This document shows, piece after piece, positions 10,655 through 52,966 of a stretch of 64,000 bases of DNA. The position numbers and the translations under genes were made by a program. The DNA is from an uncultured Gammaproteobacteria bacterium (lineage in GTDB: Bacteria > Patescibacteriota > Patescibacteriia > SG8-24). The stretch spans positions 1,046-65,045 of the forward strand of contig CAYOXM010000002.1 in NCBI GenBank assembly GCA_964407925.1. Reading direction: 5' to 3'. The notes below the pieces were generated by a model. The model made no database searches. It was not told the DNA's origin and worked only from the letters and a program-made list of their open reading frames with translations. The stretch's first letter is position 1; each line of letters starts with the position of its first letter.

Positions 10655-10663
10655 TGGTATGCT
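10655..10663 (+). promoter_or_regulatory. Extended -10 element TGGTATGCT. The ORF-track start at 10659 lies inside it, so the real start is probably 10668 or 10674.
   Basis: Sequence motif overlapping the first ATG. Confidence 0.4.
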
Positions 10664-10673
10664 GCATATGCCT

Positions 10674-12466: not shown

Positions 12467-13813
12467 ATGCGCACGACCATCACCGTCGCCATCCTCTCCC
12501 TCCTCCTGGCCGGTCCCGCGCTCGCCGCCCCCGCATCGGGGTCGCTCGTCCGCGCCTCGCAACCATCCGTCTATTATTACGGACCTGACGGCAAACGGTA
12601 CGTCTTCCCGAACGAGAAGACGTACAAGACGTGGTATGCCGATTTCAGCGGCGTCATCAAGATTTCGGACGCGGACCTCGCCGCGATTCCGCTCGGCGGC
12701 AACGTGACGTACAAGCCGGGGAGCAGGATGGTGAAAATAACGTCCGATTCCAAAGTTTACGCGGTCGACGCCGGCGGTACGCTCCGGCCGATTCAGGACG
12801 AGGCTGCCGCGAAGGCGTTGTACGGTTCCTCGTGGAACACGATGGTCGACGACGTGCCGGACGCGTTTTTCGTGAATTACAAGACGGGGGCCGCGGTCGC
12901 GACGGCGGCCGATTTCTCGCCGTCCGCCGCAACGGCGAAGGCGGCGTCGATAGCGGCCGACCGCGGTCTTGCCGCCGTCTCTTCCCTCGACATCCACGCC
13001 CTGCCGATAGGCGACGGAAAATATTCAACGGCGTCAAAAAGGGGGTACGTGTATTCTTGTCAGACTGCGTTCAGCGGCGGCGGCGCGTTCGCGTCGGGGA
13101 GCTGGATAAGCGGCGCGACGTGGGATGCGACGAAAAAGCCGACGGTCGACGGCAGCGTGACCTGGCCGAACGCCGCGTTCGCGATCGCGAAAAGCGGTGT
13201 CAGCCGGACGTTCACGAGCAACGCCCTGCCGAAAAATCACGCGACGGGGACCTTCCCGATTTCCGCATCGGATGACGCGTACATGTACGACCGTAATCCG
13301 AATTCGATCGCCGCGCAGTCGCTCTCGTTCACGCTTCCCGTCAGTCCGGTTGTCGCCGCGAACCCGTCCTGCGTCGGCGGCGAGGTCGGCATTGCGACGT
13401 CCGGCGTTCCCATTTTTAACGGATTTGACGCCGGCGGACGCGACGCGGTCGCTCATGAAATCCAGGATTCGTGCGGCGGCCATCCGCAGGTTTCGGGCAT
13501 GTACCACTACCATGGGCCGAGCGCGTGCGTCGCGACGGGCGATTCCGAACTGTTCGGCTACGCCTTCGACGGTTTCGGCATCTTCTCGAACGTCGAGAGC
13601 GGGAAGTCGCTCACGAACGACGACCTCGACGAGTGTCACGGGCACAGCCACGCGATATCGTGGGACGGTGTCATGACGACGATGTACCACTATCACCTGA
13701 CGAAGGAATTCCCTTACACCGTCGGTTGCTTCCGCGGCCAGAAGTACGTGAACGGTCCGCTTGGCGGCGGTGCAGGTCCGGGCGGCATGCAGGGGCCTCC
13801 CCCGATGTTCTGA
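12467..13813 (+). CDS. Secreted YHYH-domain protein with an N-terminal repeat domain of the type seen in Parcubacteria-like exported proteins.
   Basis: Signal peptide. YYYGPDGKRYVFPNEKTYKTWY...ISDADL module. C-terminal YHYHGP...YHYHLT motifs. Confidence 0.55.
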   Translation: MRTTITVAILSLLLAGPALAAPASGSLVRASQPSVYYYGPDGKRYVFPNEKTYKTWYADFSGVIKISDADLAAIPLGGNVTYKPGSRMVKITSDSKVYAVDAGGTLRPIQDEAAAKALYGSSWNTMVDDVPDAFFVNYKTGAAVATAADFSPSAATAKAASIAADRGLAAVSSLDIHALPIGDGKYSTASKRGYVYSCQTAFSGGGAFASGSWISGATWDATKKPTVDGSVTWPNAAFAIAKSGVSRTFTSNALPKNHATGTFPISASDDAYMYDRNPNSIAAQSLSFTLPVSPVVAANPSCVGGEVGIATSGVPIFNGFDAGGRDAVAHEIQDSCGGHPQVSGMYHYHGPSACVATGDSELFGYAFDGFGIFSNVESGKSLTNDDLDECHGHSHAISWDGVMTTMYHYHLTKEFPYTVGCFRGQKYVNGPLGGGAGPGGMQGPPPMF

Positions 13814-16421: not shown

Positions 16422-16487
16422 ATCGCGGGGGCGGATTGACGCGTGGACCCGCAAGGTCCATGCTGTTTTTATAGCCTACGAACTCCT

Positions 16488-17756
16488 ATGCGATCAGCAA
16501 ATCCGTTCGAAAACGCGTTGTTGCAGATAAGTCGCGCCGCAGCCGTCCGCGCGTTCGCGCCTGCATTTCTTGAGTCGCTACGGCACCCGAAGCGCGAAAT
16601 TCGCGTCGCCATTCCGGTGCGCATGGATGACGGCAGTCAGCGCATTTTCGAGGGCTACCGCGTGCAGCACGACAACGCGCGAGGGCCGTACAAGGGCGGC
16701 ATCCGTTTCCATCAGGACACCGACATTGACGAAGTCCGCGCGCTCGCGCTCTGGATGACGATGAAGTGCAGCCTTGCGGGCCTGCCGATGGGCGGCGGCA
16801 AGGGCGGCGTGACCGTCGACCCGAAAACCCTTTCCAAAGGCGAGCTCGAACGGCTTTCGCGCGGGTTCGTCCGAGCGCTCGTCGACGTACTCGGACCGGA
16901 AAAGGACGTTCCGGCGCCGGACGTGAACACCACGCCGGAAATAATGGCGTGGATGGCCGACGAGTACGCCAGGCTCACCGGCGACGGTTCCGGCGCGGTG
17001 ATCACCGGCAAGCCGCTCGACAGGGGCGGATCGGAAGGCCGCGGCAAGGCGACCGCGCTCGGCGGTTTCTACGTCTTTCAGACGCTGCGTGCGCGGCTCG
17101 GTCTGCCTGAACGCTGCCATGTGGCCGTCCAGGGTTTTGGCAACGCCGGACGGCACGCGGCCGAGCTGTGGGCCGCCGCGGGACACCGTGTCGTCGCCGT
17201 ATCCGATTCGCGCGGCGGCGTTCACGACGAGGGCGGCCTCGACGTCGCGGCAGTCGCCGCGCACAAGGACGCGACGGGTTCGGTAGTCGGTTTCCCCGGT
17301 GCGCGGACGGTGACGAACGAGGCGCTGCTCGAACTCGCCTGCGACCTCCTCGTGCCCGCCGCACTCGAGAATCAGTTGACTGCGGCGAACGCCGGCCGGA
17401 TCAGGGCGACGGCGGTGCTGGAGCTCGCGAACGGGCCGACGACGCCCGAGGCCGACGACGCCCTGTTCGCTTCGAGAGTCCACGTCGTGCCCGACATCCT
17501 CGCGAACGCGGGCGGCGTAACCGTTTCGACTTTCGAATGGGAACAGAACCTCAGGGGCGAGCGTTGGTCGGAAGAAGAAGTCCTCGAGAAACTTTCCGCG
17601 AACATTCGCGCGCAGGCTGAGGCCACGTGGGCTCGTGCCAAAGAACTGCATACGGACATGCGTCGCGCGGCGTTCGCACTCGCACTCGAACGGCTTGAGG
17701 AGGCGAAGGCGCGCGCGGAGGAAAGAGCGGCGGAGCGTCAAGCCGTTGCCGCGTGA
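16488..17756 (+). CDS. gdhA: Glutamate dehydrogenase (Glu/Leu/Phe/Val dehydrogenase family).
   Basis: GPYKGGIRFH and GGGKGG motifs; start placed at MRSANPFE. Confidence 0.85.
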   Translation: MRSANPFENALLQISRAAAVRAFAPAFLESLRHPKREIRVAIPVRMDDGSQRIFEGYRVQHDNARGPYKGGIRFHQDTDIDEVRALALWMTMKCSLAGLPMGGGKGGVTVDPKTLSKGELERLSRGFVRALVDVLGPEKDVPAPDVNTTPEIMAWMADEYARLTGDGSGAVITGKPLDRGGSEGRGKATALGGFYVFQTLRARLGLPERCHVAVQGFGNAGRHAAELWAAAGHRVVAVSDSRGGVHDEGGLDVAAVAAHKDATGSVVGFPGARTVTNEALLELACDLLVPAALENQLTAANAGRIRATAVLELANGPTTPEADDALFASRVHVVPDILANAGGVTVSTFEWEQNLRGERWSEEEVLEKLSANIRAQAEATWARAKELHTDMRRAAFALALERLEEAKARAEERAAERQAVAA

Positions 17757-33102: not shown

Positions 33103-33480
33103 ATGAACAAGACGCCGATCTTTTTTGCCCTCATGCTCGCCGTCGCGCTCGCCTTGAGCGGTTGCACCGTCTATACGACTTCGCGTCCCGTGTACGTGGA
33201 ACGGCGGATCGCGTGGCAACCGACGTACGTCCACACCTATGCGCACGGCTGCTGGGCCGACGACATCTGGTACGCGCCCTGTCCGGTCGCGCCTGGAGCA
33301 CCCTACGGTTACTACGTCTACGTCGACGGCTGTTACCGCTGGCACAACCACGTCGTCTGGGAGTACCGACTCGGACATCCGCCGCCGCGATGGGGCCACC
33401 ACCCGCCACCCCCGTCCCGCGGCCACCGCCGATACGAGCCGGCACATCCGCACCGCACCCCTCCGCCACGGAGGTTCTAA
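33103..33480 (+). CDS. Tyr/His/Pro/Trp-rich lipoprotein.
   Basis: MNKTPIFFALMLAVALALSGC lipobox; unusual composition. Confidence 0.4.
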   Translation: MNKTPIFFALMLAVALALSGCTVYTTSRPVYVERRIAWQPTYVHTYAHGCWADDIWYAPCPVAPGAPYGYYVYVDGCYRWHNHVVWEYRLGHPPPRWGHHPPPPSRGHRRYEPAHPHRTPPPRRF

Positions 33481-33484
33481 CGTC

Positions 33485-33516
33485 AGAAGCCGCTGCAAGC
33501 GGCTCTTTTTTTATTT
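33485..33516 (+). terminator. Intrinsic terminator (gaagccgc-tgca-agcggctc followed by TTTTTTTATTT).
   Basis: Hairpin plus T-run. Confidence 0.6.
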
Positions 33517-33550
33517 GGAGCATGACGGGCGTCGCGGCTCCTGCTATGCT

Positions 33551-34789
33551 ATGGACATTGATTCATCGACATGCATCAACATGTACACCACGTTCCTGCT
33601 TCAGGCGCTCTCCGCGGTCGTCGGCGTCGCGGCGACCTTCCTCGTCGTAAAGGGAATGCTCAGTATCCGAAAAAGGGCTGACCGCGGCACGCGGACAACC
33701 ATCGACATCGGCGCCGGCGCGCTCATCGTCGCGGCGGTCGTGTACCTCGTTGCTGGCATCCCATACCCGTTGCACTTCGCCATGCCGCCGACGATGCACG
33801 CGATGACCAAGGACAAGCTGCCGGCATCGTTGCCGGTACCGTCCGTAATCCGCTTCCTCTGGAACAAGGATCGGTTTGAGAAAGTCGCCGACATCGGACG
33901 TGATCCGAACGCCGTGCCTGCGCCGATTGCACGACGGGAACCGTCGACGGTGAAAATTGACGTTCGCGCGAAGGAAGTCGTCGCCGAAATAGCGCCGGGA
34001 ATTTTCTTCAACTACTGGACCTACGACGGGCAGGTGCCCGGACCGATGTACCGGGTGCGTGCGGGCGATACCGTCGATCTCAGTTTGACCAATGATCCCA
34101 CCAGCCTGCATTCGCACAACATCGATCTGCACGCGGTCACGGGACCTGGCGGCGGCGCGGCGGTGACAGACGTCGCGCCGGGCGAGACCAAGTCCTTCCG
34201 CTGGCTCGCGAAGCATCCAGGACTGTACGAATATCACTGCGCGACCGCGAACGTCAGCACGCACAACGCGCACGGACAATACGGTCTCATCCTCGTCGAG
34301 CCCGAGGGCGGCCTCCCTCCGGTCGACAAGGAGTTCTATCTCGTGCAGGGAGAGTCCTATACCGCAGGAGGGATCGGGAAGAGGGGGATGCTGGCATTCG
34401 ACACGCGCGGCCTGATTGACGGCGAGCCGACCTATGTCACGTTCAACGGCAAGGTGGAACAGGCGCCGCGGATGAAAGCGCGCGTGGGCGACCGCATCCG
34501 CATGTACGTCGGCAACGGCGGCGTCAACCTGGTATCGTCGTTCCATGTCATCGGCGAGATTTTCGACACCGTCTACCCCGAAGCTGGGATGGGCGAAGGT
34601 TCGGCAGTCTTTAAGAACGTGCAGACGACAGCGGTGCTTCCTGGCGGCGCGACCGTCGTGGAATTCACGGTTGATGTTCCGGGCAAATACACCATCGTGG
34701 ATCACGCGCTCGCGCGGATGAACAAGGGTGCCTGGGCGGTTCTCGAGGTGGAGGGCGAGCCGAATCCCTCGGTTTTCCAGCCCTTGTAG
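33551..34789 (+). CDS. nirK: Copper-containing nitrite reductase NirK (two-domain cupredoxin) with two N-terminal TM helices. An alternative start lies at 33581.
   Basis: HSHNIDLHAV type-2 Cu His motifs, HCATANV, HAHGQYGLILVEP. The TGCTATGCT -10 element directly abuts the ATG at 33551, so the ATG at 33581 (MYTTFLLQ) may be the true start. Confidence 0.75.
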   Translation: MDIDSSTCINMYTTFLLQALSAVVGVAATFLVVKGMLSIRKRADRGTRTTIDIGAGALIVAAVVYLVAGIPYPLHFAMPPTMHAMTKDKLPASLPVPSVIRFLWNKDRFEKVADIGRDPNAVPAPIARREPSTVKIDVRAKEVVAEIAPGIFFNYWTYDGQVPGPMYRVRAGDTVDLSLTNDPTSLHSHNIDLHAVTGPGGGAAVTDVAPGETKSFRWLAKHPGLYEYHCATANVSTHNAHGQYGLILVEPEGGLPPVDKEFYLVQGESYTAGGIGKRGMLAFDTRGLIDGEPTYVTFNGKVEQAPRMKARVGDRIRMYVGNGGVNLVSSFHVIGEIFDTVYPEAGMGEGSAVFKNVQTTAVLPGGATVVEFTVDVPGKYTIVDHALARMNKGAWAVLEVEGEPNPSVFQPL

Positions 34790-36170: not shown

Positions 36171-37375
36171 CAGGAGGCGAGCCGCGTGGCGACCGCGTCG
36201 ATGAATCCTTCCGTGGTCGCCGGTTCTTTCACTTCGAGCGTCGTCAGCTGCACGAGATCTTTCGTCATGATGCCGGCGTCGACGGTGTCCATCACCGCCT
36301 TCTCGAGGCGCTTCGCGAATGCCGTCACGTCCGGCGTCTTGTCGATCTCGCCCCGCTTCGCGAGCGCGCCGGTCCAGGCGAATATGCTCGCGACCGAGTT
36401 CGTCGAGGTCGGTTCGCCCTTCTGGTGCTTGTACCAGTGCCGCTGGACCGTGCCATGCGCGGCTTCGTATTCGTACACGCCGTTCGGGCTCACGAGCACC
36501 GAGGTCATCAGGCCCAGCGACCCGTAACCCGCGGCGAGCATGTCGGACATCACGTCGCCGTCGTAGTTCATGCAGGCCCACAGGATGCCGCCCTCGTGCC
36601 GCATCACCCGCGCGACGATGTCGTCGATGAGCGTGTAGAAGTGGTGAATGCCCGCCGCGTCGAAATCCTTGCGGCGCGTCTCGACCTCCTGTTCGAAAAT
36701 CTTCCTGAACGTCCCGTGATACGTCTTCGAAATCGTGTCCTTCGTGCCGAACCAGAGGTCCATTTTCTCCGACAGCGCGTACTCGATGCAGGCGCGCGCG
36801 AACGACATGATGGACTCCTCGGTGTTGTGAATCGCCTGCGCGATTCCCGGACCCTTGAGTTCGGTGACGAGCCGGCGTTCCTCAAGGCCGTTCGCGCCCG
36901 AGTAGATCAGTTCGACTTTGCCCGGGCCCCAACAGGCGATCTCGGCATTCTTATATATGTCGCCGTAGGCGTGGCGCGCGATGACGATCGGCTTTTTCCA
37001 CGAGCGGACCATCGGCGGAATGCTTTTCACCATGATCGGCTTGCGGAACACCGTGCCGTCGAGGATGCCCCGGATGGTGGCGTTCGGGCTGTCCCACGCG
37101 CGCTTCAGCGAGTACTCGAGCACGCGGTCGTTGTTCGGGGTGATGGTGGCGCATTTCACGCCGACGCCGTGGCGCAGGATTGCCTCCGCCGCCCCGACCG
37201 TCACCTTGTCGTCGGTCGCGTCGCGGTTCTTGATGCCGAGATCGAAGTACTCGAGATTGACGTCGAGGTTCGGAAGAATCAGTTTCTCCTTGATGAGTTG
37301 CCAGATGACGCGGGTCATCTCGTCGCCGTCGAGCTCGACGAGCGGCGTCAGGACCTTCGGTTTCGTGATTGGCAT
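36170..37375 (-). CDS. icd: NADP-dependent isocitrate dehydrogenase, eukaryote-like homodimeric (IDH1/2-type) subfamily.
   Basis: Near-collinear match to IDH1: [64 protein letters not shown]. Start at MPITKPKV. Confidence 0.85.
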
Positions 37376-37435
37376 GGGCGTGCGGAAAGAGTTATCATCG
37401 TGGGCGAAGTGTACCATGACGAATTTTTGACTACT

Positions 37436-40129
37436 ATGCTCGACCCCTTCCGCGCCAAACGCACGCTCTCGACTGAGGACAGAGACGTCACCTACTATGC
37501 GCTCTCCGCGCTGCAAGAGGCGGGTTTAGCCAAAATTTCACGCCTCCCGTACGCGATTCGCGTGCTTTTGGAAGCGCTCCTGCGCACCGTCGACGGCCGT
37601 GCGGTGACTGAAGATGACGTCCGGCGACTCGCGCGCTGGGGAGAGGCGGGGAACGAAGGCGCGGAGCTCCCGTTCCGGCCCTCCCGCGTCGTCCTGCAGG
37701 ACTTCACGGGCGTCCCGTGCATCGCCGACCTCGCGGCGATGCGTGACGCGCTCGCCGAGGCCGGGGGCGATCCCGCCAAGGTGAACCCGCTCATCCCCGT
37801 CGATCTCGTCATCGACCATTCGGTGCAGGTGGACGCGCACGGCACGTCCGGCGCGCTCGCCGAAAACGTCCGGCGCGAATTCGAACGCAACGGCGAACGC
37901 TACGCGTTCCTCAAGTGGGGCCAGCGCGCGTTCGCGAACCTGCGCGTCGTCCCGCCGGCGACCGGCATCGTGCATCAGGTCAATTTGGAGCTGCTCGCGT
38001 CCGTCGTGCGCGTCGAGGAGCTCGGCGGGGAACGCGTCGCTTTCCCGGACACGGTCGTCGGCACCGACTCGCATACCACGATGATCAACGGTCTCGGCGT
38101 GCTGGGCTGGGGCGTCGGCGGCATCGAGGCGGAGGCGGCGATGCTGGGACAGCCCGTCGCCATGACCGCGCCGCCGGTCGTCGGCGTCGAACTGTCCGGC
38201 GCGTTGCGAGAAGGGGTGACGGCGACCGATCTCGTGCTCGCCATAACCGAGATCCTGCGGAAACACGGCGTCGTGGAAAAATTCGTCGAATTCCACGGGT
38301 CCGGCGCGTCCGCTCTCTCTCTCGCCGACCGCGCGACGGTCGCGAACATGGCTCCGGAATACGGCGCGACGGTCGGTTATTTCCCGATCGACGGCGAAAC
38401 GCTCCGCTACCTCCGTGCCACCGGTCGTGAGGAGCGTCATGTCGCGCTCGTCGAGGCGTACGCGAAGGCGCAGGGACTTTTCCGCGAGGACGGCGCGCCG
38501 ACCCCGTCGTATTCGGAGCGCGTCGCCATCGACCTCGCGCGCGTCGAGCCGGCCGTCGCGGGTCCGAAGCGTCCGCAGGACCGCGTTCCGCTCTCGCAGG
38601 TAAAACGATCGTTCCGCGAAGCGCTCATCGCGCCGACGGAGAAACGCGGCTACGGCCTCGCGCATGAAGCGCTGACGGGGAACGACGAGGCGGCGGTACG
38701 TCACGGATCGGTCATCATCGCCGCCATCACCAGCTGCACCAATACCTCGAATCCTTCAGTGATGCTTGCCGCGGGATTGCTCGCCAAAAAGGCGACCGAG
38801 CGGGGACTCCGCGTGCCGGACCACGTGAAAACCAGCCTCGCGCCGGGTTCGCGCGCGGTCACGGCGTATCTGGAAAAAGCAGGTCTCACCGCGCCGCTCG
38901 AGCAGCTCGGTTTCGGCGTCGTCGGCTACGGCTGCACGACGTGCATCGGGAACAGCGGACCGGTCGAAGACGCGATCGCCGAGCGCATCGAGCGTGACGG
39001 TATCGTTGCGGCCGCAGTGCTTTCCGGCAACCGCAATTTCGAAGGACGCGTGCATCCGTCAGCCAAGGCGAACTATCTCGCGTCGCCGCCGCTCGTCGTC
39101 GCATACGCGCTCGCGGGCCGCGTCGACGTCGATTTCGCGACCGAGCCGATCGGAATCGACTCCGCGGGGAAGCCGGTGACGCTCGCCGAACTTTGGCCGT
39201 CATCAGCGGAAATCGACGAAGCCATGCGCGGTGCGCTCACGCCCGAGGTGTTCCGCGAACAGTACGGCCGCGCGTTCGAGGGAAGCGCCGAGTGGCAAGC
39301 GGTGAAGGCCGCAGGAGGCGACCGCTACGCTTGGGACGCGGCTTCTTCCTACATCAAAGCGCCGCCGTTCTTCGCGTCGGCTCCCGCGAACGCGCCCGGT
39401 ATCGCCGGCGCGCGGGCGCTCGTCATGCTCGGCGACTCGGTCACGACCGACCACATCTCTCCCGCGGGCAACATCGCCATGAAGAGCGCGGCGGCGAAAT
39501 ACCTGATGGGACTTGGCGTCGTGCCTTCGGACTTCAATTCGTACGGCGCGCGTCGCGGCAACCACGAAGTGATGATGCGCGGGACGTTCGCGAACGTACG
39601 GCTCAAGAACCTTCTCGCGCCCGGCACCGAGGGCGGCGTCACGACGCACCTGCCGAGCGGCGACGTCATGAGCATCTTCGACGCGTCCGCGCGATACGTC
39701 GAAACGGGGACGCCGCTCATCGTCATCGCCGGCAAGGATTACGGCATGGGTTCTTCACGCGACTGGGCGGCAAAAGGGGTGCGACTGCTCGGCGTCAAGG
39801 CAGTGCTCTTCGAGAGCGTCGAGCGCATTCACCGAAGCAATCTCGCCGGCATGGGCATCCTGCCGCTGCAATTCAAGCCGGGAGAAACGCCCGCGACGCT
39901 CGGTCTTACGGGGCGGGAGACGTTCACCGTCGCGTACGATGCCGCGACGCTCGCACCGGGACAGGACCTGCGGATCGTCGCGCGACGCGACGATGGCGCG
40001 GAGACGACGTTCGTCGCGGTTTGCAGGCTCGATACGCCGGTCGAAATCGACTATCACCGCTGCGGCGGCATCCTCCCGTACGTCCTTCGCGCGATGTCGA
40101 AGACCGGAGCGACGCGCGTTCAGCCATAG
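37436..40129 (+). CDS. acnA: Aconitate hydratase A.
   Basis: 897 aa. N-terminus aligns with AcnA (..TYYALSAL...[17 protein letters not shown]). Cys ligands lie in the CTNTSNP and [10 protein letters not shown] regions. Confidence 0.85.
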
Positions 40130-41559: not shown

Positions 41560-42840
41560 ATGGGCGTCTCCGCGAAAAATCCGAACACGGCTGAGCACAG
41601 GCACGAGCTGTCCGACGACGATGCCGTCGAGCTTTATCGTTGGCTGACGATTCCGCGCGTCGCTACCGTCGGCGTCATGGTCGCCGCCATTTCTTGGTTC
41701 TGGTTCCATGGCGCCATCGACTTCGATCCCGAACCGATCATCTTCGGGCTCGTGCCGATTTTCCTTGCCGCTTCGGCGACCGTCGGCGTCCTCATCATGC
41801 GCAAGCTGCGCGCCGCGTTCCTGCTCGTGGTCCAGCTCGTCATCGACACGATGGGCGTCACCGCGGCGATCCTCATGACCGGAGGCATTCGCAGCCCGTT
41901 CATAGGCATGTACGTCCTTGTCATCGTTTCCGCCGGGATCATCTCGACGGGGACCGCGATCGGCATCGGCCTGCTCATCGCCGCGCTGTACGGCGGGATG
42001 GCCTGGCTGGACCGTCTCGGCGGACCGGTCGTCCACGGGATGTCGATGGGGTACGCGCAAAACGACGCCATCAGCCTGACGGTATACGTCCTCGTCGTGG
42101 CGCTCGTCGCCTTCCAAAGCCAATTTTACGCGCGACGCATCCGCGAGAAGGACGAGGAACTCCTCAAGCTCAAGGACGAATTCCTCTTTCGCACCATACA
42201 CGACCTCCGCTCGCCGTCGACGGTCATCAGGCTCATTCTCGAAAAATACGCCGATCCCGTCCTGCACCGTAAATTCCCGGAAATGGAGGGCGACATCGGC
42301 ATGATCCAGGGCGCGCTCGGGCGCATGACGAACCTCATTGAGGACCTCCTCAAGATCGGCCGCGGGGAGCAGACCGGATTCGTGCTGAAAAAGGACGCGC
42401 TTGATCCGGCGGCGGTTATGAACGGCGTCATCGCCGAGCTCGGTCCCGTCATCAAGAAGAAAAACGTGACGGTCGAGCATGTCGCGGCGGGCGCGGCGAA
42501 GATTCTCGGCGACGCGGAGAAGCTGAAGGAGGCATTCAACAATTTCGTGGAAAACGCGGTGAAGTACAACCGCGATGGCGGCGCGATAACCGTCGCCTAC
42601 CGGAAGGAGGCACGCGCCCTTGCCGTCACCATTGCCGACACGGGCATCGGCATTTCGGAAAAGAGCCTCCAGAAACTTTTCACGCCGTATTTCCGGGGGG
42701 ACATCGGGCGGGAAATACAGGGGACGGGGCTCGGCCTCTACATGACCAAACGGCTTATCGAAAAAATGGGAGGCGCGGTCGCGGTGGCGTCCGTGAAGGA
42801 AAAGGGGACGACATTCACCGTGCGGCTGCCGCTCGCGTGA
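41560..42840 (+). CDS. Membrane sensor histidine kinase (multi-TM N-terminus, HisKA, HATPase_c), orphan.
   Basis: H-box FRTIHDLRSP, N-box NFVENAVKYN, G-boxes DTGIGI and GTGLGL. Confidence 0.75.
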   Translation: MGVSAKNPNTAEHRHELSDDDAVELYRWLTIPRVATVGVMVAAISWFWFHGAIDFDPEPIIFGLVPIFLAASATVGVLIMRKLRAAFLLVVQLVIDTMGVTAAILMTGGIRSPFIGMYVLVIVSAGIISTGTAIGIGLLIAALYGGMAWLDRLGGPVVHGMSMGYAQNDAISLTVYVLVVALVAFQSQFYARRIREKDEELLKLKDEFLFRTIHDLRSPSTVIRLILEKYADPVLHRKFPEMEGDIGMIQGALGRMTNLIEDLLKIGRGEQTGFVLKKDALDPAAVMNGVIAELGPVIKKKNVTVEHVAAGAAKILGDAEKLKEAFNNFVENAVKYNRDGGAITVAYRKEARALAVTIADTGIGISEKSLQKLFTPYFRGDIGREIQGTGLGLYMTKRLIEKMGGAVAVASVKEKGTTFTVRLPLA

Positions 42841-44331: not shown

Positions 44332-46602
44332 TCAGCCCTTGCCGATGCCGGCGTGAAAAATCGTCCACTCCGAATCCGGCAGGCGGAAATCGGGATCCGC
44401 GGCGCGGTGCAGCCTGCCCTCGAACTCCCTCCATGACCGCTTGCCGTCCTTCGGTCCGAGGAGCGTCATGAACATTTCCTTCAGGATGGCGAGCACCTCG
44501 CGATTTTCGAGAAGGTCCTCGACATTCTTGCGCAGGCCTTCGGGGACGGGCTCTCCGTTGACCTCCGTCAGCGGGAAGGAGCGCAGCTTGTCGTAATCGT
44601 GTACCCGTTCTCCGAAAATCGCGCCGTTGTCGATTGCGACATGCTTGCCGTCCTTGCTGATGAGCCAGTTGCCTGCGTGCCGGTCGCTGTTCTGCGTAAG
44701 CCAGTCAAACAGCCCGAGCTTTTTCAGCTCCTCGCGATGCCGGTCCTCCGCCCATCCGACGGTCGTCGCGACGTCGCCGACCTTCCAGTCCTGAACCGCG
44801 GCGATGCCTTCGGGTCCGTTGCGCAGGACCGTCGCTGGCACGAGGCCGAAACGCAACGCGCGGTCGATGAACGACGCCAGCACTTCGCGTCCCACCATGC
44901 CGCCTTCCGGAATGCCGTCGCGAACGCCGCGCTCGCGCAATCGCGACTTGTACAGCGCGGGCATGTCGCGGCCCTCGATGAGGACGTATCGCGGGCTGTT
45001 CGCGCTTTCGCCGCTGACGGCGCCGACGCGCTGAATGCGTCCGTGCAGCCGCTGCTCGTCGCCCACGCGCGACCGCTCGGCCTCGGCAGCGCCCAGAATG
45101 GTTCGTTCCATCGCGAGCATCAGGTCAACGCTCGCCCTGTCGGTCTTTTCGATGAGCATCGCGGCTTCCTTCTCCTCGCGCGTCTCCCTGCGCTCGGGCA
45201 GGGAGTGCGCACGCGCCTCGTCAAGCATCGCCTCGGCGTCGCTGCTCGGGACGCCGAGCGCGTCCATGAGCGACAGCCGCTGCTCCATCGGGTAGCGGCG
45301 GAGGATGTCGACGACCGTGTCATGCGAAAAACGCATCGCCTCGGCGGCGCTCGGTAGCAGGGCGGGATTTTTTTCGAGCAAGTCCTGCGTAACCGCGATT
45401 TTTTCTTCCAAAGAAAGGTCGGAACCCGTCGCCGCGACGTAATCAGGGAAGGCGTCGGGATGCTTTCTGGCCAATCGAAGACCGACGGCGAGCTTCTCGG
45501 AGGCGCTCAGGCCGAGTTCGTCAAGACGACCGCCCAGTTCGGGAAGACCCGCGACCATGGTGACGAGCGCGTCGATTTGCGCGTCCGGTCCGAGGTCGGG
45601 CAACCGCTTGAGCCCCTCGAGCGCCGACGGCGGATGCGCTTCCGCAAGGATGCGCAAATTCCTTATCTGGCGCTCCAGCGGAAGGTCGGCCAGCGCTTTA
45701 GCCGATGCGGAGGGGTTCGATTCGACGAGCGCGTCGGCGATTTTCACGTCAGCCACGCCCTCGAACAGCTCGGGAAACTCCTTAAGTACCGGCGTGCCGC
45801 CCTTGACGACGGCGCGCAGAAGAAGCGGTTCGCGGTCGTCATCCGCGGGAGGCGTTCGGCGCATCGCCTCGAGCGCCATGCGGACGTCGAACGAGGAGCC
45901 GCCGCCCGTCGCGAGCACTTCCGCGGGCGCCATCTTCCTGCGCTGCGCCGCCGCCGTCCGTTTTCCGAGATACGTCTCGAAAAAACGGCGGCGCACTGCC
46001 GGACCGGCCTCTTCGAGCAGTCCCGCGTAACGCTCGGCGAGGGGAAGGGCGGCGGCGTCGAGCGAGGCGAAGTCAAGTTTGGCCTCGATCTCGGGCCAGT
46101 CGTCCGGATGCGCACGCGCGGCGGCCTCGAACTTGTCATCAATGACCGCCATGAACGCGTCGGGGTCGTCGCGCAATTTCTCCGGCATTTTGTCCAGTGC
46201 GCCCGCGGTGGCGGGGAAAAAATGCCGATCGAGGAAATCCAGGTACGCGCGCGAACCCTCGGTCTCCGGTGCCTCTTCGGCGATAGCTTCGGCCTCGCGC
46301 CGCGCCTCTTCCGCGATCGCCCGCATGCGTTCGGCGTTCTCGCGAAGGAACTCCTCGCTGTCGCGCTTCAGCTGGGTAAGTTCGAACGGGACGTCGTCCA
46401 GGCCTTCGGTCGCGGAACCCATGACGGCGGCAGCCTGCCTCTCGGCCTCTGCGATGTCGTCGATGAGCGCGCGATACTCGCGTCCCGACGACTCCCTCGG
46501 CGTTTCTCTACCCTCCGAAAGCGGCTCCGGCCGCCCTTCAGGGCCGACGGGCCGCTCCGGAAACGGCATTTCGCGCGACTGTTCCGTCGGCATACGCGTC
46601 AT
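44332..46602 (-). CDS. Large (~755 aa) protein with a C-terminal PI3K/PI4K-like atypical kinase catalytic signature; the acidic alpha-helical N-terminal ~550 aa has no recognised domain.
   Basis: C-terminus LGLFDWLTQNSDRHAGNWLISKDGKHVAIDNGAIFG aligns with the PI3/4K catalytic loop GDRHxxN and the DFG-like IDxG motif. Confidence 0.55.
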   Translation of the reverse strand: MTRMPTEQSREMPFPERPVGPEGRPEPLSEGRETPRESSGREYRALIDDIAEAERQAAAVMGSATEGLDDVPFELTQLKRDSEEFLRENAERMRAIAEEARREAEAIAEEAPETEGSRAYLDFLDRHFFPATAGALDKMPEKLRDDPDAFMAVIDDKFEAAARAHPDDWPEIEAKLDFASLDAAALPLAERYAGLLEEAGPAVRRRFFETYLGKRTAAAQRRKMAPAEVLATGGGSSFDVRMALEAMRRTPPADDDREPLLLRAVVKGGTPVLKEFPELFEGVADVKIADALVESNPSASAKALADLPLERQIRNLRILAEAHPPSALEGLKRLPDLGPDAQIDALVTMVAGLPELGGRLDELGLSASEKLAVGLRLARKHPDAFPDYVAATGSDLSLEEKIAVTQDLLEKNPALLPSAAEAMRFSHDTVVDILRRYPMEQRLSLMDALGVPSSDAEAMLDEARAHSLPERRETREEKEAAMLIEKTDRASVDLMLAMERTILGAAEAERSRVGDEQRLHGRIQRVGAVSGESANSPRYVLIEGRDMPALYKSRLRERGVRDGIPEGGMVGREVLASFIDRALRFGLVPATVLRNGPEGIAAVQDWKVGDVATTVGWAEDRHREELKKLGLFDWLTQNSDRHAGNWLISKDGKHVAIDNGAIFGERVHDYDKLRSFPLTEVNGEPVPEGLRKNVEDLLENREVLAILKEMFMTLLGPKDGKRSWREFEGRLHRAADPDFRLPDSEWTIFHAGIGKG

Positions 46603-46853: not shown

Positions 46854-46966
46854 ATGCTGAAAGTGTACCTGCCTGCGGCCCCTTTGACAAAGACGCTCAA
46901 GGGAGGAACAGTACCGTCGTCCCTCGGAGGGACGCGTTCATTTCCAAGGAGAAAGGGAACCACGTC

Positions 46967-48706
46967 ATGCACTTCCTCCTCATCGCCGCCGCAGTGGCCG
47001 TACTCGGCGCGCTGCCGTTGCTTTTTCGGCGACGGTTCGGTGCCGCGTCGAAACTCGCGGCCGTAGCGGCGCTCGTCGCCGCCGCGGTCGAATACTTCGC
47101 GCTGCCTTCGGCCGTATGGCCGTTTTGGGGAGCGACGGGCATCCTCGTCGTCGCCTGCTGGGCGGTCGCCGGCATTGTCGCCTATACGCACGACGAACGC
47201 GAGCGCGAAAGGCAGTACGACCGGCGACGCGACTACCGGTCCGTCGACAGTGCCGCCGAACGTCGGTCGCTCTTGCTCGCCGCAGGCTGGCCGGTAATCG
47301 GAGCCGTCCTGCTCGCGATACGATTCGCCTCGAGCTGGGCCGCGTTCCGCGCGCCGGAATACGTCGCGCTCATCGGCGAAGTGCAGCGGAGCGACTGGGC
47401 CAAGGACGTACAGCGCGCCGATCCGCGGCACATCCGTCTCGTGCCGCAGGAGATGGCGCACTGGCTCGCCAACAAACAGCTCGGCGAAGCGCCTGGCGCG
47501 GTCGGCAGCCAGTTCCAGATCGCCGAGGAGTCGCTGACGCTGCAGATGATCAGGGGCGAGCTGTGGTACGTCGCGCCGCTCGACTTCAAGGACTTCGGCG
47601 CCTGGCAGTCCGCCGGCGCGTCACCAGGGTACGTCATGGTGCACGCGGAAGACCCGCTGCGTCAGGTCATCGTCGTCACGGACCGGAAGTTCACGTACAC
47701 GCCGAACGCCTGCTTCGGAAACAACCTCGAACGGCATCTCTGGACCGCGGGTTGGCGCACGAAAGGCCTCACCGACTGGTCGCTCGAAATCGACGAGGCG
47801 GGCAAGGCGTGGTGGATCGTCTCCGTCTACGAGCCGACGATCGGCTGGAAGGGCGAGCGCGTGCTCGGCGTCGTCATCGTGGACCCGGAAAACGGCGATA
47901 CCGCGTTCCATGCGGTCGGCGACGTGCCGCATTGGGTGGACCGCGTGTTCCCCAAGGCGTTCGTGCAGCGCTACATCTCGTCCTGGGGCGCGTACTCGAA
48001 CGGCTGGCTGAACGGCTGGTGGTACAAGAAAGACGTCACCGAACCCGAGACGCCATCCATCGTCTATGGCGCCGACGGCGAACCGTACTGGGTGACCGGG
48101 GTGACGTCGACGAACGAGCATGACGAGTCGCTCGTCGGGCTGATGTACACGCACACCCGCACGGGGAAGTCCGTCTTCTACCGCGCGGTCGGCGGCACGG
48201 ATTCAGCCGTGCTCCAAGCGGTCAACAACAAGGTCGCCTACCGGAAGCTGCACGGCGCGAGCCCGGTCCTCTACAACCTGTACGGGACCATGGCATCCAT
48301 CGTGCCCCTCCTCGGCGAAAGCCACACCTTCCAAGGAGTGGCCATCGTCCGGATCGACAATCTCCAAGTCGCCGTCGGCGAAACGCCGGTCCAGGCGCTC
48401 GAGGAGTACCGCAAGCTCATTCCCGAAAGCGTCGACCGCATCGAACCGTCCGCAAGCGACCATTCGCGGACCATCGAGGGCAAGGTCGCCCGCATCGCCG
48501 ACATCGGCGGCGGCACATACTACGTCTACCTCGAGGGCGTTCCTACGGTGTTCGTCGGTTCGCGGGAGCATGCTCGGGCGATGCCGCTCACGAAGCCCGG
48601 CGATAAAGTACGCATCAGATACCTCGCCTCGGGCGAGTCGCCGCCCATAGTCTCGTTCGAGAACCTCTCTCTGCCGATCGTCTCCGGCCCACCGCCGGAG
48701 AAGTAG
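46967..48706 (+). CDS. Membrane protein with four N-terminal TM helices and a large (~450 aa) extracytoplasmic domain of unknown function.
   Basis: ATG at 46967 (MHFLLIAAAVAVLGALPLLF), preceded by an AAGGAGA Shine-Dalgarno sequence at 46945-46951, one of the few clear Shine-Dalgarno sequences in the window. Confidence 0.5.
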   Translation: MHFLLIAAAVAVLGALPLLFRRRFGAASKLAAVAALVAAAVEYFALPSAVWPFWGATGILVVACWAVAGIVAYTHDERERERQYDRRRDYRSVDSAAERRSLLLAAGWPVIGAVLLAIRFASSWAAFRAPEYVALIGEVQRSDWAKDVQRADPRHIRLVPQEMAHWLANKQLGEAPGAVGSQFQIAEESLTLQMIRGELWYVAPLDFKDFGAWQSAGASPGYVMVHAEDPLRQVIVVTDRKFTYTPNACFGNNLERHLWTAGWRTKGLTDWSLEIDEAGKAWWIVSVYEPTIGWKGERVLGVVIVDPENGDTAFHAVGDVPHWVDRVFPKAFVQRYISSWGAYSNGWLNGWWYKKDVTEPETPSIVYGADGEPYWVTGVTSTNEHDESLVGLMYTHTRTGKSVFYRAVGGTDSAVLQAVNNKVAYRKLHGASPVLYNLYGTMASIVPLLGESHTFQGVAIVRIDNLQVAVGETPVQALEEYRKLIPESVDRIEPSASDHSRTIEGKVARIADIGGGTYYVYLEGVPTVFVGSREHARAMPLTKPGDKVRIRYLASGESPPIVSFENLSLPIVSGPPPEK

Positions 48707-48768: not shown

Positions 48769-49347
48769 ATGGAAGGATTCCTCGCGCGGGCCGTGACCGC
48801 AGCCGTCGTGCTGGCGAGTTTCGGCCTCTATCACCTCGTGAACGGACGAAAGCCGCGGACGCGCGTGCTCATGACGCCGTTCGATGACGCCATCCCGTTC
48901 GTGCCCGCATTCAGCGTGCCGTATATGCTGTATTTTCCGTTCCTGTTCGGCACGGTGCTGTACGGCATTTTGGCGACCGCTGAGTGGCGCGCGGTCGCGA
49001 TGGCGACGGTGCTCATTCAAGCCGCCGCGTCGCTTACGTACCTCCTTTTTCAAACGCACGTGCCCCGGCCCATCGTCGAGGGGAAGGGACCGTTCGCGGC
49101 GCTGACGCGGTACGTCTATGCCAACGACCAGCCGTATAACTGCTTCCCGAGCCTGCACGTGGCGCACGCGGCCGGATGCCTGTACTGGTCGGCATCGTTT
49201 TTCCCCGCGTTCACGGCCGCCTTCGCCGCGCTGGCGGTCGCCATCATCCTTTCGACGATGTTCATCAAGCAGCACGCCGTCGCCGACGTCGCCGGAGGAC
49301 TCGTCCTCGTCGCGGCCGCGTTCAGCGTCGTTTCGGTCGTCGCGTGA
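48769..49347 (+). CDS. PAP2-superfamily membrane phosphatase.
   Basis: PSLHVAHA and KQHAVADVAGG, matching the PAP2 motif 2 and 3 pattern. Confidence 0.6.
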   Translation: MEGFLARAVTAAVVLASFGLYHLVNGRKPRTRVLMTPFDDAIPFVPAFSVPYMLYFPFLFGTVLYGILATAEWRAVAMATVLIQAAASLTYLLFQTHVPRPIVEGKGPFAALTRYVYANDQPYNCFPSLHVAHAAGCLYWSASFFPAFTAAFAALAVAIILSTMFIKQHAVADVAGGLVLVAAAFSVVSVVA

Positions 49348-49382: not shown

Positions 49383-49427
49383 AAATAAAACGCCGCCGTC
49401 TCCGGCGGCGCCCGATGTTTTTTCGAA
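49383..49427. terminator. Bidirectional intrinsic terminator (cgccgccg-tctc-cggcggcg).
   Basis: Hairpin flanked by AAAATAAAA and TTTTTT. Confidence 0.55.
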
Positions 49428-49432
49428 CGAGA

Positions 49433-50116
49433 TCAATCGGCCATCGTCCCGTGGATGAGCACCGTCCCGACGACCTTCCCTTGGGGATTCTTGAGCGGCG
49501 ATGCCCAAAGTTTGACGTCGATGACCGCGCCGTCCTTCCGTTTCCGTCGCGCCTTCGCGCCTTCGAGGATGCGCCCCTCGGCGATATGGCGCCGCATGCG
49601 CGTGAACTCGTCCTTGTCGGTATCCGTTATCGTGGGAAGGATTTTTCCGACGGCCTCTTCGGCGGACCAGCCGAACAGGCGGACCGACGCGGGATTCCAT
49701 TCCGTGACGTTGCCTTGCAGGTCGAGCGCGGCGATGGACGCCGGCGCCCCCTGCACGATGTCCATCATGCGTTTCGCGCGGCTTTCGCTGTCCTGCAGGC
49801 TGAGCGTCTTTTTCACGACGACCTGTTCCAGCTTGTCCGAATACTCCCGAATCTCCGCCTCGTGCCGCTCCTGCATCTTCGTCATCATCCGGAACAGGAT
49901 GGCGAGCATCGTCTGCGAGAGGACGATGGCCACGATCGTGATGAGCCAGGCCGGCCTGTCGAATTTCACCCCCGCCGGCAGCTTCGCGTCGACGAACTGC
50001 AGCAGTCCGGCGGTCGCGGCGATGCCGGTGCCGGCGATGAACACGCAGCCGGCGATGAATTTGTCGCGTAACGCCTTGATGTCGTTTGAGGTCGGCATAG
50101 GTTTTTCGTGATTCAT
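49433..50116 (-). CDS. Membrane-anchored PAS-domain protein without an output domain.
   Basis: Start at MNHEKPMPT (ATGA overlap with the upstream gene), two TM helices, then a PAS-like region DIVQGAPASIAALDLQGNVTEWNPASVRLFGWSAEEAVGK. Confidence 0.55.
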   Translation of the reverse strand: MNHEKPMPTSNDIKALRDKFIAGCVFIAGTGIAATAGLLQFVDAKLPAGVKFDRPAWLITIVAIVLSQTMLAILFRMMTKMQERHEAEIREYSDKLEQVVVKKTLSLQDSESRAKRMMDIVQGAPASIAALDLQGNVTEWNPASVRLFGWSAEEAVGKILPTITDTDKDEFTRMRRHIAEGRILEGAKARRKRKDGAVIDVKLWASPLKNPQGKVVGTVLIHGTMAD

Positions 50117-51864
50117 CGTCCCCACGATGCGTAGGGAGCGGTCATGAGCAAGGAAGATCCGGAATCGGGGCAGCGGAACGATACGGCACCGGTATCCGAC
50201 GTGGCCAAGGCGTCGGCCCAGAAGCACGGCGTCGTTCCCGCGCAGGCGCGAACGAGCGCTGCGGGTGCCGTGGCACGGACGGTCTCGCCGGGGGTGCAGG
50301 GGACGGCCGCGGGGCGCATGCGCCAACCGCAGTCGCGGAGCGGCCCGTACTCCAGAGTATCGCATTCCGCCGTAACCGCGCCACCCGTCCTGGGGATGCT
50401 CACGGTGACGCTCGCCCTGTCGTTCGTATAAAACTCCGGATTCTCCCTGCAGGCCTGCTTGAGCGCGGGCTTGCCCGAAGGCCCGAGTACGGGGTTTCCG
50501 GCGGCATCCAGGGCGGGAACGTACTTGCCCGGGACGGCCTCACCCTCGCACAGGAGCCGCAGCGGATTCACTTGCATGGCAAGGGAGAATTCCTGTGACT
50601 CGCCCTCGATCGCCAAGTCGGTAATGTCGATCCATTGGCAGTCGAGACCGATGAAATACTCGTCCTCCCAGCCCGCGCTGATGCCTTGGTTTTCGCAGGA
50701 GGCGAAGGGCGTGGTGAACGCCACGTCGGCGGCGTTCGCGGCGCGGCCGGTGCTTTCGACGCAGAACGACTGCTTCGCGCCCGGGAGTACGGGTTTTCCG
50801 TCCTTCTCGAGTGAAAATTCGCCGTAACCGTTAAAGTGATAGTGGCCGTGGCACTGCGACCAGGCGAATTGGTTCGTCTTTTCGATGAGCGCGTTCACGT
50901 CGCCGAAAGCCAGGTCACGATCGCCGAGGTTGGGGGTGACGGCGCGGAATCGCAGCAGCCGCCGCATTCCGGGCCCTCCCACGCAGCCCTCCGCCACGGC
51001 ACAGGAGTCGGGCGTGAAATGCTTATAGATGATGTCATAATCCTTGAGCGCTGCCGCATCGACGCTGATATCCGCACCGCCGACGGAGCGGGGGTGCGCG
51101 GCGGCGAGCTTTTCCGCGACGGCGGGGTCGTACGCGATCCGCTCCATCCGCACGTAGAGCGCCCCCACGCCGTTCTCCCGCGCCAAAACGTCGAGGCACG
51201 GCTCAAGAGGAAGGCCCCCGGGGTGTTCGCAAACGGGGACGCCGGGCGCGCATTTTGGATCGAAGTAATTTCCGTAATTGCGGTCATCCACGAGTCCGAG
51301 CGGTATCTCGTCCTGATTAGCGCAGGCGTATCCAAGCCGCTGGAAGAGATTCCGCGGGTCGGACGGCACGATGAACGTTTCGACGTGGACGCCGCCCACT
51401 TCGGCGAGCGCCTCGGCGGACTGCGCGAGCGAGTCCGCGGGGGCGACGACGTGTCCAGAAAGGACGTAGGGAATCGCGACGGTTGCCCGACGCTCGTCGT
51501 ACGTCGGATCGCCGGCCGCGAGAGCGAGGTCGTCGAACGGGATCGGCATCGCCGGTTCGCGGAAAATGACCTGAAGATAGCTGGTCGACGCCTGTCGCCG
51601 GATCAACTTTTCCAGCGTCGCCGCCGAAACTGCGCTCGGCTTCATGAAAGCCTCACGTACCGCGAGCCGACGTTCGCGGCCCTCCGGCAATTGCAGGACG
51701 ATCCGGCCGCGAACCTCGACCGTCGCCATCGCCGGTTCCGCCGTCACCTTGCCGCCGGAAGTGCCAAAATTGAGCAGGACGAGCGCCTTCACCATCACGA
51801 GCAGCACGATGACGATGAGGAGGACGATGACGCCCGTCCCGCCGTGCGGATTCCTGTTTGCCAT
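50113..51864 (-). CDS. Membrane-anchored extracytoplasmic protein with a lysyl-oxidase-like copper/LTQ catalytic-site motif.
   Basis: N-terminal TM GVIVLLIVIVLLVMVKALVLL; QFAWSQCHGHYHFNGYGEF compared with lysyl-oxidase WEWHSCHQHYHSMDEF. Confidence 0.55.
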   Translation of the reverse strand: MANRNPHGGTGVIVLLIVIVLLVMVKALVLLNFGTSGGKVTAEPAMATVEVRGRIVLQLPEGRERRLAVREAFMKPSAVSAATLEKLIRRQASTSYLQVIFREPAMPIPFDDLALAAGDPTYDERRATVAIPYVLSGHVVAPADSLAQSAEALAEVGGVHVETFIVPSDPRNLFQRLGYACANQDEIPLGLVDDRNYGNYFDPKCAPGVPVCEHPGGLPLEPCLDVLARENGVGALYVRMERIAYDPAVAEKLAAAHPRSVGGADISVDAAALKDYDIIYKHFTPDSCAVAEGCVGGPGMRRLLRFRAVTPNLGDRDLAFGDVNALIEKTNQFAWSQCHGHYHFNGYGEFSLEKDGKPVLPGAKQSFCVESTGRAANAADVAFTTPFASCENQGISAGWEDEYFIGLDCQWIDITDLAIEGESQEFSLAMQVNPLRLLCEGEAVPGKYVPALDAAGNPVLGPSGKPALKQACRENPEFYTNDRASVTVSIPRTGGAVTAECDTLEYGPLRDCGWRMRPAAVPCTPGETVRATAPAALVRACAGTTPCFWADALATSDTGAVSFRCPDSGSSLLMTAPYASWGR

Positions 51865-51989
51865 ACGCCTTCAGTGAATCAGATTGCGCCGTCTTTGGAC
51901 AGCAATAGGCCGCGGATTGACGCAGCGGAAAAATCGTGCGTACGATGTGGCATCGGCGAACCGCCGCTCGCTGAACAAAGGAGTTGTTC

Positions 51990-52241
51990 ATGGCACTATC
52001 CGACGACGACCGGAGACGTCTCGCTGCGGGACTCGGCACGCTTTCCGACGAGGCGCTCGGAGAGGTGAAGCGGGAACTCGACACGCTGCATGACGAACTG
52101 GCTGATGCCAATTCGCAGTTCCCCGAAACCAAGAAGTTCCTGGCCGCACGGGGGCTGACGCATGTGAAACAGCTTGACCGACAGGGCAGGGAAGACCTGA
52201 AAGCCCACCTGATGGCGGTCTTGCGCAGCATAACGAATTGA
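51990..52241 (+). CDS. Small hypothetical protein (83 aa), alpha-helical.
   Basis: AAGGAG Shine-Dalgarno sequence 6 nt upstream; high GC3. Confidence 0.35.
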   Translation: MALSDDDRRRLAAGLGTLSDEALGEVKRELDTLHDELADANSQFPETKKFLAARGLTHVKQLDRQGREDLKAHLMAVLRSITN

Positions 52242-52378: not shown

Positions 52379-52966
52379 ATGACAAGGACTTCCCACCTGC
52401 GCCATCCGGTGCTCAATCGAGGTCTTTTGCTCATTCTCGGAGCGTTCTTCGTAATCGGAGCCGAAAAACCGTCTTATGCCGTGGCGGCCGACGTTCCTGC
52501 CGCGCCCGTCTCAACCCTTTCGAGGTTGACCGTTAACACCCAAGAGGTACTCCCTGCAGAACCGGCCGGACCTGAACAACCTCCGTCGATGCAGGAAGTC
52601 CTGCTCGGTCTCTGCGAGAAGCGAGGATACGGGGAGGAATGCGCCAAAACCCTGCTCGGCATGGTGTGGAAGGAATCGCTCAACGACGGCAAGGCGATCG
52701 GCGACGGCGGACGCGCGCGCGGTTGGTTCCAAATCCACTACCGCCTCCATAAGATTTCGATTGCTTGCGCGGAGGACCTCGTCTGTTCCGCGCAATGGAC
52801 GCTCGACTACCTGGAACGCAACGGTTACCGCAAATGGCCGAATTACGCCGTCCAGTGCCATAACGGCTGCGGCTTCAAGAACGGCTATGCCGCGTCCGTG
52901 CGCCGACACGGCGAACGGCTCTGGAAGAACGGCCAGCCCTACGAAATGGCGCTCGCGAAAAACTGA
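52379..52966 (+). CDS. Small membrane-anchored lysozyme/SLT-like protein.
   Basis: TM anchor; KESLNDG...GARGWFQIHY resembles the SLT ES...G.(L/F)Q(I) catalytic region. Confidence 0.4.
   Translation: MTRTSHLRHPVLNRGLLLILGAFFVIGAEKPSYAVAADVPAAPVSTLSRLTVNTQEVLPAEPAGPEQPPSMQEVLLGLCEKRGYGEECAKTLLGMVWKESLNDGKAIGDGGRARGWFQIHYRLHKISIACAEDLVCSAQWTLDYLERNGYRKWPNYAVQCHNGCGFKNGYAASVRRHGERLWKNGQPYEMALAKN

Follow-up and report, generated by a model that had tools for sequence, protein, structure and literature searches.

Does a bacterial genome encode an intact counterpart of the animal lysyl oxidases, and does the encoded protein act together with a sensor whose gene lies beside it? The question is raised by a 64,000-nucleotide stretch of contig CAYOXM010000002.1 (GenBank assembly GCA_964407925.1), referred to here as the window, in which a gene at 50113–51864 on the reverse strand (−) encodes a 583-residue lysyl oxidase-family protein, the LOX protein; the gene is present in the open reading frame (ORF) list and an NCBI protein (P0001) is 100% identical to its product. 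An earlier note, made from the sequence, had claimed for this protein the copper-binding and lysine tyrosylquinone (LTQ) signature of animal lysyl oxidases, an N-terminal transmembrane anchor, and a role in a redox- or amine-sensing pair with the membrane PAS protein encoded next to it. We compare the protein with known families and structures, ask how well its catalytic residues are kept and whether it has a hydrophobic anchor, and examine which genes lie beside it in its relatives. Judged by these comparisons, the gene encodes a bacterial protein that is related to the animal lysyl oxidases, is predicted to be tethered to the membrane and has every catalytic residue intact.

Family membership and predicted fold

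The LOX protein matches the Pfam family Lysyl_oxidase (PF01186) with a score of 72.9 bits, above the gathering score of 20.4 (E = 3.6e-20). The match extends over residues 300–440 (window 50545–50967) and covers positions 51–180 of the 204 in the model. PF01186 is the sole Pfam family reported even at E≤5; the topaquinone copper amine oxidase family (PF01179) gives no match to the protein, and NCBIfam contains no model matching it. A phmmer search of the PDB returns one match only, human LOXL2 (5ZE3; E = 6e-12), and a profile of 19 homologues finds a chain of the same entry with E = 1.1e-22.

The predicted structure points in the same direction. An AlphaFold2 model built from the 19-homologue alignment has a mean predicted local distance difference test score (pLDDT) of 84.3 and a predicted template modelling score (pTM) of 0.83. 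When this model is compared with the PDB using Foldseek, chains A and B of 5ZE3 are the only matches at E≤1e-3 (2.9e-11 and 8.3e-11, probability 1.0), and LOXL2, whose catalytic domain has a β-sandwich core with the copper hairpin, is thus the one significant fold match for the LOX protein.

The catalytic site

In LOXL2, His626, His628 and His630 coordinate the metal together with Tyr689, and Lys653 and Tyr689 form the LTQ cofactor, as has been shown experimentally (PMC5899467). HMMER alignments with LOXL2 give an equivalent for each of these residues in the LOX protein, with H339, H341 and H343 (50836–50850, −) aligned to H626, H628 and H630, K364 (50773–50775, −) to K653 and Y403 (50656–50658, −) to Y689. 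The three histidines are located, with C338, in the motif QFAWSQCHGHYHFNGYGEF (residues 332–350; 50815–50871, −), which is invariant and aligns with the CHRHYH sequence of LOXL2. K364 is the equivalent of the LTQ precursor lysine and Y403 that of the precursor tyrosine, which in the precursor state is also the fourth metal ligand (PMC5899467); the lysine and tyrosine are 16.6 Å apart in the 5ZE3 precursor (PMC5899467). All five residues are invariant in the alignment of 19 homologues, in which identity falls to 33%.

Identification of the LTQ tyrosine requires one correction to the earlier note, which had placed it downstream of the histidines, in HYHFNGY. Neither Y342 nor Y347 is the LTQ tyrosine; the residue that corresponds with it is Y403, which sits in GWEDEYFIGLDCQWIDITD, 60 residues further along. 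The cysteines are conserved to the same degree as the catalytic residues. All 18 in the LOX protein are invariant among the 19 homologues, and C338, C368, C390 and C409 correspond to C625, C657, C673 and C695 of LOXL2. With the family match, the predicted fold, the histidine triad, the LTQ lysine and tyrosine and these four cysteines all present and invariant, the signature claimed for the protein, including its three histidine ligands, is borne out.

Domain architecture and membrane anchor

The LOX catalytic domain occupies residues ∼233–492 (50389–51168, −), its outer limits being approximate values derived from the Pfam match, the LOXL2 alignment and the Foldseek comparison. An insertion of ∼35 residues follows its VNP motif. 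On the N-terminal side lies a folded domain of residues 44–232 (51169–51735, −), which is defined by the alignment and by pLDDT values mostly of 85–97, and which contains four invariant cysteines (181, 205, 212 and 223) and the conserved block DPRxLFQRLGYACANQDE; it matches no family in Pfam or NCBIfam. On the C-terminal side, the alignment and the model delimit a Cys-rich β domain of residues 493–583 (50116–50388, −), with six invariant cysteines and no Pfam family. The non-LOX domains give no significant PDB fold match with Foldseek, the best being YcdA, MoaC and SEA at E 0.02–0.4.

This arrangement recurs in other lineages. Among the top 150 representatives, the alignment in many cases runs from query residue ∼120–150 to ∼530–570, and full-length matches occur among GTDB species representatives in Myxococcota, Chloroflexota, Actinomycetota and other metagenome-assembled genomes (MAGs). 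Because of this alignment span and these full-length matches across phyla, we assign the LOX protein, by sequence, to a recurrent three-domain subfamily of ∼580–700 residues; most of its members come from Myxococcota, others from Chloroflexota, Actinomycetota and the clade of the window, which is probably part of the Candidate Phyla Radiation (CPR).

At its N-terminus the protein has a single strongly hydrophobic stretch (residues 4–38; maximum 3.45 in Kyte-Doolittle windows of 19 residues scoring >1.6), and the AlphaFold model has a helix at residues 10–33 (51766–51837, −). The anchor described in the earlier note is therefore present as one hydrophobic segment that is helical in the model. 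Residues 10–33 are predicted to form a signal anchor or an uncleaved signal peptide, which would place the remainder of the protein outside the cytoplasm. An extracytoplasmic, oxidising location would fit the 18 invariant cysteines, among them the equivalents of LOXL2 C625, C657, C673 and C695. Two distant LOX homologues, P0020 and P0031, have hydrophobic leaders ending in Cys that, read by eye, appear lipoprotein-like. The start region of the LOX gene has a GAAGG sequence 5 nt upstream of its ATG.

Relatives of the LOX protein

LOX-domain proteins are already documented in bacteria, and the protein described here adds a member to a known, little-understood family. LOX genes have been reported from five bacterial phyla and two archaeal groups, with the copper and LTQ residues checked (Grau-Bove et al. 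2015, PMC4448552), and most prokaryotic members consist of a LOX domain to which, in some, a signal peptide or transmembrane segment is added (PMC4448552). A phmmer search of 1.84 billion representatives at 50% identity gives 2075 clusters at E≤1e-3, 1261 at E≤1e-10 and 131 at E≤1e-30, and an alignment-based scan of GTDB species representatives gives 267 confirmed LOX relatives, mostly from Myxococcota. NCBI already names the close relatives P0011, P0020, P0027 and P0032 "lysyl oxidase family protein". The rare and patchy prokaryotic distribution that had been claimed is thus only roughly true, given these numbers and the description of bacterial members since 2015 (PMC4448552).

The characterised prokaryotic member is HTU-LOX of the archaeon Haloterrigena turkmenica, an active amine oxidase of relaxed specificity that is sensitive to β-aminopropionitrile (BAPN) and whose native role is described as "cryptic" (Pestov et al. 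2019, PMC6452851). Its substrates include taurine, glycine, aminoglycosides and polymyxin, and its native activity is undetectable in its host (PMC6452851). CPR LOX sequences are mentioned in passing in the same paper, in which they are placed in a "short" group (PMC6452851). The literature searched yielded no functional study of LOX in Patescibacteria, Parcubacteria or myxobacteria, or of any bacterial LOX member.

A comparison of 80 distant LOX loci shows no gene that is consistently found beside LOX; Ser/Thr kinases are found near LOX at 8 of them and ABC ATPases at 7, at varying distance and on varying strands, and we take these to be background. Since no neighbour is conserved, LOX-family genes would usually act as stand-alone genes.

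Proposed mechanism and substrate

We propose that the LOX protein is a surface-tethered Cu/LTQ amine oxidase, with a probability of about 0.8 for the chemistry and a much lower one for any particular substrate. Topology, copper and LTQ chemistry, activity and class of substrate are the inferred parts of this proposal, and the mechanism is modelled on LOXL2 by homology. The N-terminal helix would hold the protein in the cytoplasmic membrane, with three folded, disulfide-rich domains facing outward. H339, H341 and H343, on a β-hairpin, would coordinate Cu(II), with Y403 as a further ligand; Y403 would then be oxidised by copper and O2, and addition of K364 to it would give LTQ. The mature enzyme would oxidatively deaminate primary amines, whether peptidyl-lysine or small or polymeric amines, to yield aldehydes, NH3 and H2O2.

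Comparison with the animal enzymes (LOX and LOXL1-4) brings out both the common core and the differences around it. The LOX protein shares with LOXL2 the family PF01186 and the fold, a His-x-His-x-His copper site on a β-hairpin, the LTQ lysine and tyrosine at aligned positions, a near-identical DCQWIDITD block and the four equivalent cysteines; an extracytoplasmic location like that of LOXL2 is predicted. Unlike the animal proteins, however, it has neither SRCR domains nor a basic propeptide and would be tethered to the membrane by its N-terminal helix, and it carries the ∼35-residue insertion after VNP. It also has two domains that the animal enzymes lack, a folded one of 190 residues at the N-terminus and a Cys-rich one of 90 residues at the C-terminus. 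Collagen and elastin, the substrates of the animal enzymes, do not exist in the organism from which the window comes. With HTU-LOX and other prokaryotic members the protein shares an N-terminal hydrophobic segment, conserved Cu and LTQ residues and a patchy distribution, probably shaped by horizontal transfer, but its three-domain form differs from the single LOX domain of most members in the 2015 survey. The topaquinone copper amine oxidases (PF01179) catalyse the same reaction, in which a primary amine, O2 and H2O give an aldehyde, NH3 and H2O2, and likewise use a Tyr-derived quinone made with a three-His copper site. Their fold is nevertheless unrelated, their topaquinone (TPQ) comes from a single Tyr in contrast to the cross-linked Lys and Tyr of LTQ, and one of their His ligands is distant in sequence (PMC5899467).

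Several features weigh against a simple transfer of LOXL2 chemistry to the LOX protein. Foldseek gives low TM-scores against 5ZE3 (0.27 and 0.35) and a high root-mean-square deviation, because both chains are multi-domain. The C663–C685 disulfide of LOXL2 is absent, its positions being taken by G and W, and by eye the LOX protein does not obviously keep the acidic residues that bind Ca2+ in LOXL2. The loss of the disulfide could be read, with the lack of detectable HTU-LOX activity in its native host (PMC6452851), as the mark of a catalytically dead protein that keeps the LOX fold for a structural or adhesive role at the cell surface. We consider this extremely unlikely, because three His, a Lys and a Tyr that stay invariant across 19 sequences down to 33% identity would not be expected without selection for catalysis. 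Nor, if the protein is a Cu/LTQ amine oxidase, need its substrate be a macromolecule. It might be a broad-specificity scavenging or detoxifying enzyme for small amines, polyamines and cationic antibiotics, serving to supply ammonia, to destroy aminoglycoside- or polymyxin-type compounds, or to direct H2O2 against competitors or hosts; the chemistry would be the same and the substrate the sole difference. The relaxed specificity of HTU-LOX, the only characterised prokaryotic LOX (PMC6452851), speaks for this, as does the lack of any substrate-like gene, such as one for a collagen-like or Lys-rich structural protein, conserved beside members of the family. Against it, LOX is linked to neither an amine transporter nor an aldehyde dehydrogenase, and membrane tethering with two conserved disulfide-rich domains would fit the recognition of a macromolecule more easily. 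We consider a scavenging role of this kind less likely than not. Because of the tethering and the two extra conserved domains, we favour a macromolecular target at the cell surface as somewhat more likely than free diffusible amines.

Relationship to the adjacent PAS gene

The gene downstream of LOX (49433–50116, −) encodes a membrane PAS protein of 227 residues if counted from an ATG that overlaps the LOX stop codon, or of 221 residues if counted from the start at 50098 that is conserved in homologues. The protein scores 59.6 bits against PF00989 (cut-off 22.6) and 61.8 bits against TIGR00229 (cut-off 22.9) over residues 113–221; the PAS domain, predicted to be cytoplasmic, comprises residues 119–221 (49454–49762, −). 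Two hydrophobic segments (20–42 and 55–79) and a helical linker are present, and no output domain is found in Pfam or NCBIfam, the protein being without HisKA or HATPase. No kinase remnant follows the gene, which ends 20 nt before a terminator-like hairpin (49388–49413, −; 11-bp stem, 8 G-C pairs and a T-run) located by consensus scan only. The protein thus answers to its earlier description as a membrane PAS protein without an output domain. It resembles the input half of sensor histidine kinases such as AtoS and FixL, in which two transmembrane segments lead through a helical linker to a PAS domain on the cytoplasmic side, and differs from them in having no HisKA, HATPase or other output domain.

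At the junction of the two genes the LOX stop codon TGA (50115–50113) overlaps an ATG (50116–50114) to form the sequence ATGA (50113–50116). The overlap had been described correctly; its ATG, however, is probably not the real start of the PAS gene, because four PAS homologues all start at the position of Met7 of the window ORF (ATG 50098–50096) and the nearest relative, locus L085, has CTGA where the window has ATGA. The real start is probably the ATG at 50098, in which case the real gap between LOX and PAS is 14 nt. Among the loci compared, the ATGA overlap is unique to the window, and the coupling is accordingly not conserved.

These observations bear on whether LOX and PAS form a sensing pair, in which the PAS protein would sense H2O2, aldehyde, ammonia or redox state and signal to a partner, with translational coupling fixing the proportion of the two proteins. 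LOX and PAS are direct neighbours on one strand; the consensus scan places no terminator-like site between the two and a strong one after PAS, and for this reason they are probably co-transcribed in the window's genome. The adjacency is kept in three relatives, namely L085 (83% identity for LOX and 94% for PAS; 13-nt gap), L087 (84% for LOX over the 429 residues on its contig; 13-nt gap) and L001 (78% and 92%; LOX stop TAA, 76-nt gap), and the PAS protein is more conserved (89–94% identity) than LOX (78–84%). Because H2O2 passes through membranes, its detection by a PAS domain in the cytoplasm is conceivable in principle. Such a pair is nonetheless very unlikely. In the relatives with 13-nt or 76-nt gaps the PAS gene starts at the Met7 position and there is no overlap to couple translation, and the adjacency is restricted to relatives whose LOX is 78–84% identical, with no pairing below 78%. 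At 57–59% LOX identity (L002 and L083) the upstream neighbourhood is kept (an 84-aa gene, a ∼190-aa gene, a DHO_dh-like gene and DUF6899), but the gene downstream encodes an unrelated 125-aa membrane protein; at ∼43% (L084; GC 40%) it is a GIY-YIG gene, and tblastn finds no orthologue of the window PAS protein in the 80 GTDB distant LOX loci. The 125-aa protein was considered as a truncated PAS homologue and rejected, its 21–23% identity being spurious.

The converse arrangement is seen in L086, from a close relative, which has the PAS gene, at 89% identity, within the same ten-gene neighbourhood and no LOX gene (best tblastn E 9.8). Comparison of L086:5257–6331 with window 50080–52010 shows the LOX upstream region (window ∼51869–51910) still recognisable directly in front of PAS, a pattern suggestive of the precise loss of LOX in L086 or of its precise gain elsewhere. 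LOX without PAS and PAS without LOX therefore both occur, and the two are not an obligate pair. The predicted topology also argues against direct sensing, in that the PAS domain would be cytoplasmic and the loop exposed outside only ∼12 residues long, with the LOX domain outside and no output domain in the PAS protein. We conclude that the PAS gene is probably a recent, dispensable neighbour of LOX and not its functional partner.

Genomic context

GC content in the window is 64%, and many of its ORFs match no Pfam family; neither the Rfam nor the tRNA scan gives a hit. A glutamate dehydrogenase (16443–17756, +) has as its best named relatives, at 64–70% identity, proteins that all come from Candidatus Uhrbacteria, the Patescibacteria group or Paceibacterota, and the genome is likely, though not settled, to be that of a high-GC member of the Patescibacteria (CPR) related to Uhrbacteria. 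The reservation is that the assignment has one marker gene behind it and that the closest LOX-bearing GTDB MAG (L002/L003) carries the label Candidatus Binatia. GC content ranges from 40% to 66% within the clade of close LOX orthologues.

Upstream of LOX, an intergenic region (51865–51983, read from the sequence) separates it from a divergent gene for an 85-aa helical protein (51984–52241, +), which is followed by a gene for a 195-aa protein with an N-terminal hydrophobic segment (52379–52966, +). Both divergent genes are kept in position in all clade members with LOX identity of at least 57%, and also in the LOX-less L086; neither product matches a family in Pfam or NCBIfam. The 195-aa protein, read by eye, suggested a lytic transglycosylase (WKES...GWFQIH), but no match to one is found in Pfam or NCBIfam, even at E≤5, and no claim is made.

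Beyond the PAS gene, and convergent with it, lies a PAP2-family phosphatase gene (48769–49347, +), which adjoins a gene for a 580-aa membrane protein without a family (46964–48706, +). This pair is kept in L086 (585 aa and PAP2), in which two inserted genes, one for a CHASE-HATPase histidine kinase and one of 144 aa, separate PAS from PAP2; L087 has PAP2 and a partial upstream ORF. Two further proteins in the window, a PAS-HisKA-HATPase sensor kinase (10659–12455, +) and a 426-aa protein whose sole domain is a HATPase_c at the C-terminus (41560–42840, +), are candidate partners for the output-less PAS protein.

Elsewhere in the window, two genes are possibly copper-related, one for a 516-aa protein with multicopper-oxidase domains (Cu-oxidase_3 and Cu-oxidase_2; 33239–34789, +), 15 kb from LOX, and the other for a 448-aa YHYH-domain protein (12467–13813, +), 36 kb from it. 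A 1234-aa aconitase (36425–40129, +) has its Aconitase domain from residue 410, after an N-terminal extension of ∼400 residues without a Pfam match. A 756-aa protein (44332–46602, −) carries a PI3/PI4-kinase-like domain (PF00454, 39 bits) at its C-terminus; its N-terminal region is long, acidic and helical and belongs to no family, and its score for the SCO1664 family TIGR03843 is below the cut-off (72 against 172 bits). A PIF1-like helicase is encoded at 8114–9646 (+).

Implications

If the genome is that of a CPR episymbiont, its three-domain LOX could turn lysines of its own surface, or of the envelope of a host, into aldehydes that go on to form covalent cross-links. We regard this as quite unlikely. 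On such a reading the N- and C-terminal domains would provide target recognition, and the cross-links would harden the envelope of the symbiont or weld the symbiont to its host, in a bacterial parallel to the cross-linking of the extracellular matrix.

Lysyl oxidases are best known for the cross-linking of collagen and elastin in animals, and one prokaryotic relative, from an archaeon, has been shown to be active. The present finding leaves knowledge of the family unchanged, and its apparent special feature, a coupled PAS sensor, does not hold up. The LOX protein is nevertheless a well-conserved and, by its sequence, probably active member from a poorly studied lineage, with extra domains that belong to no Pfam family, and it is a reasonable candidate for expression and substrate discovery.

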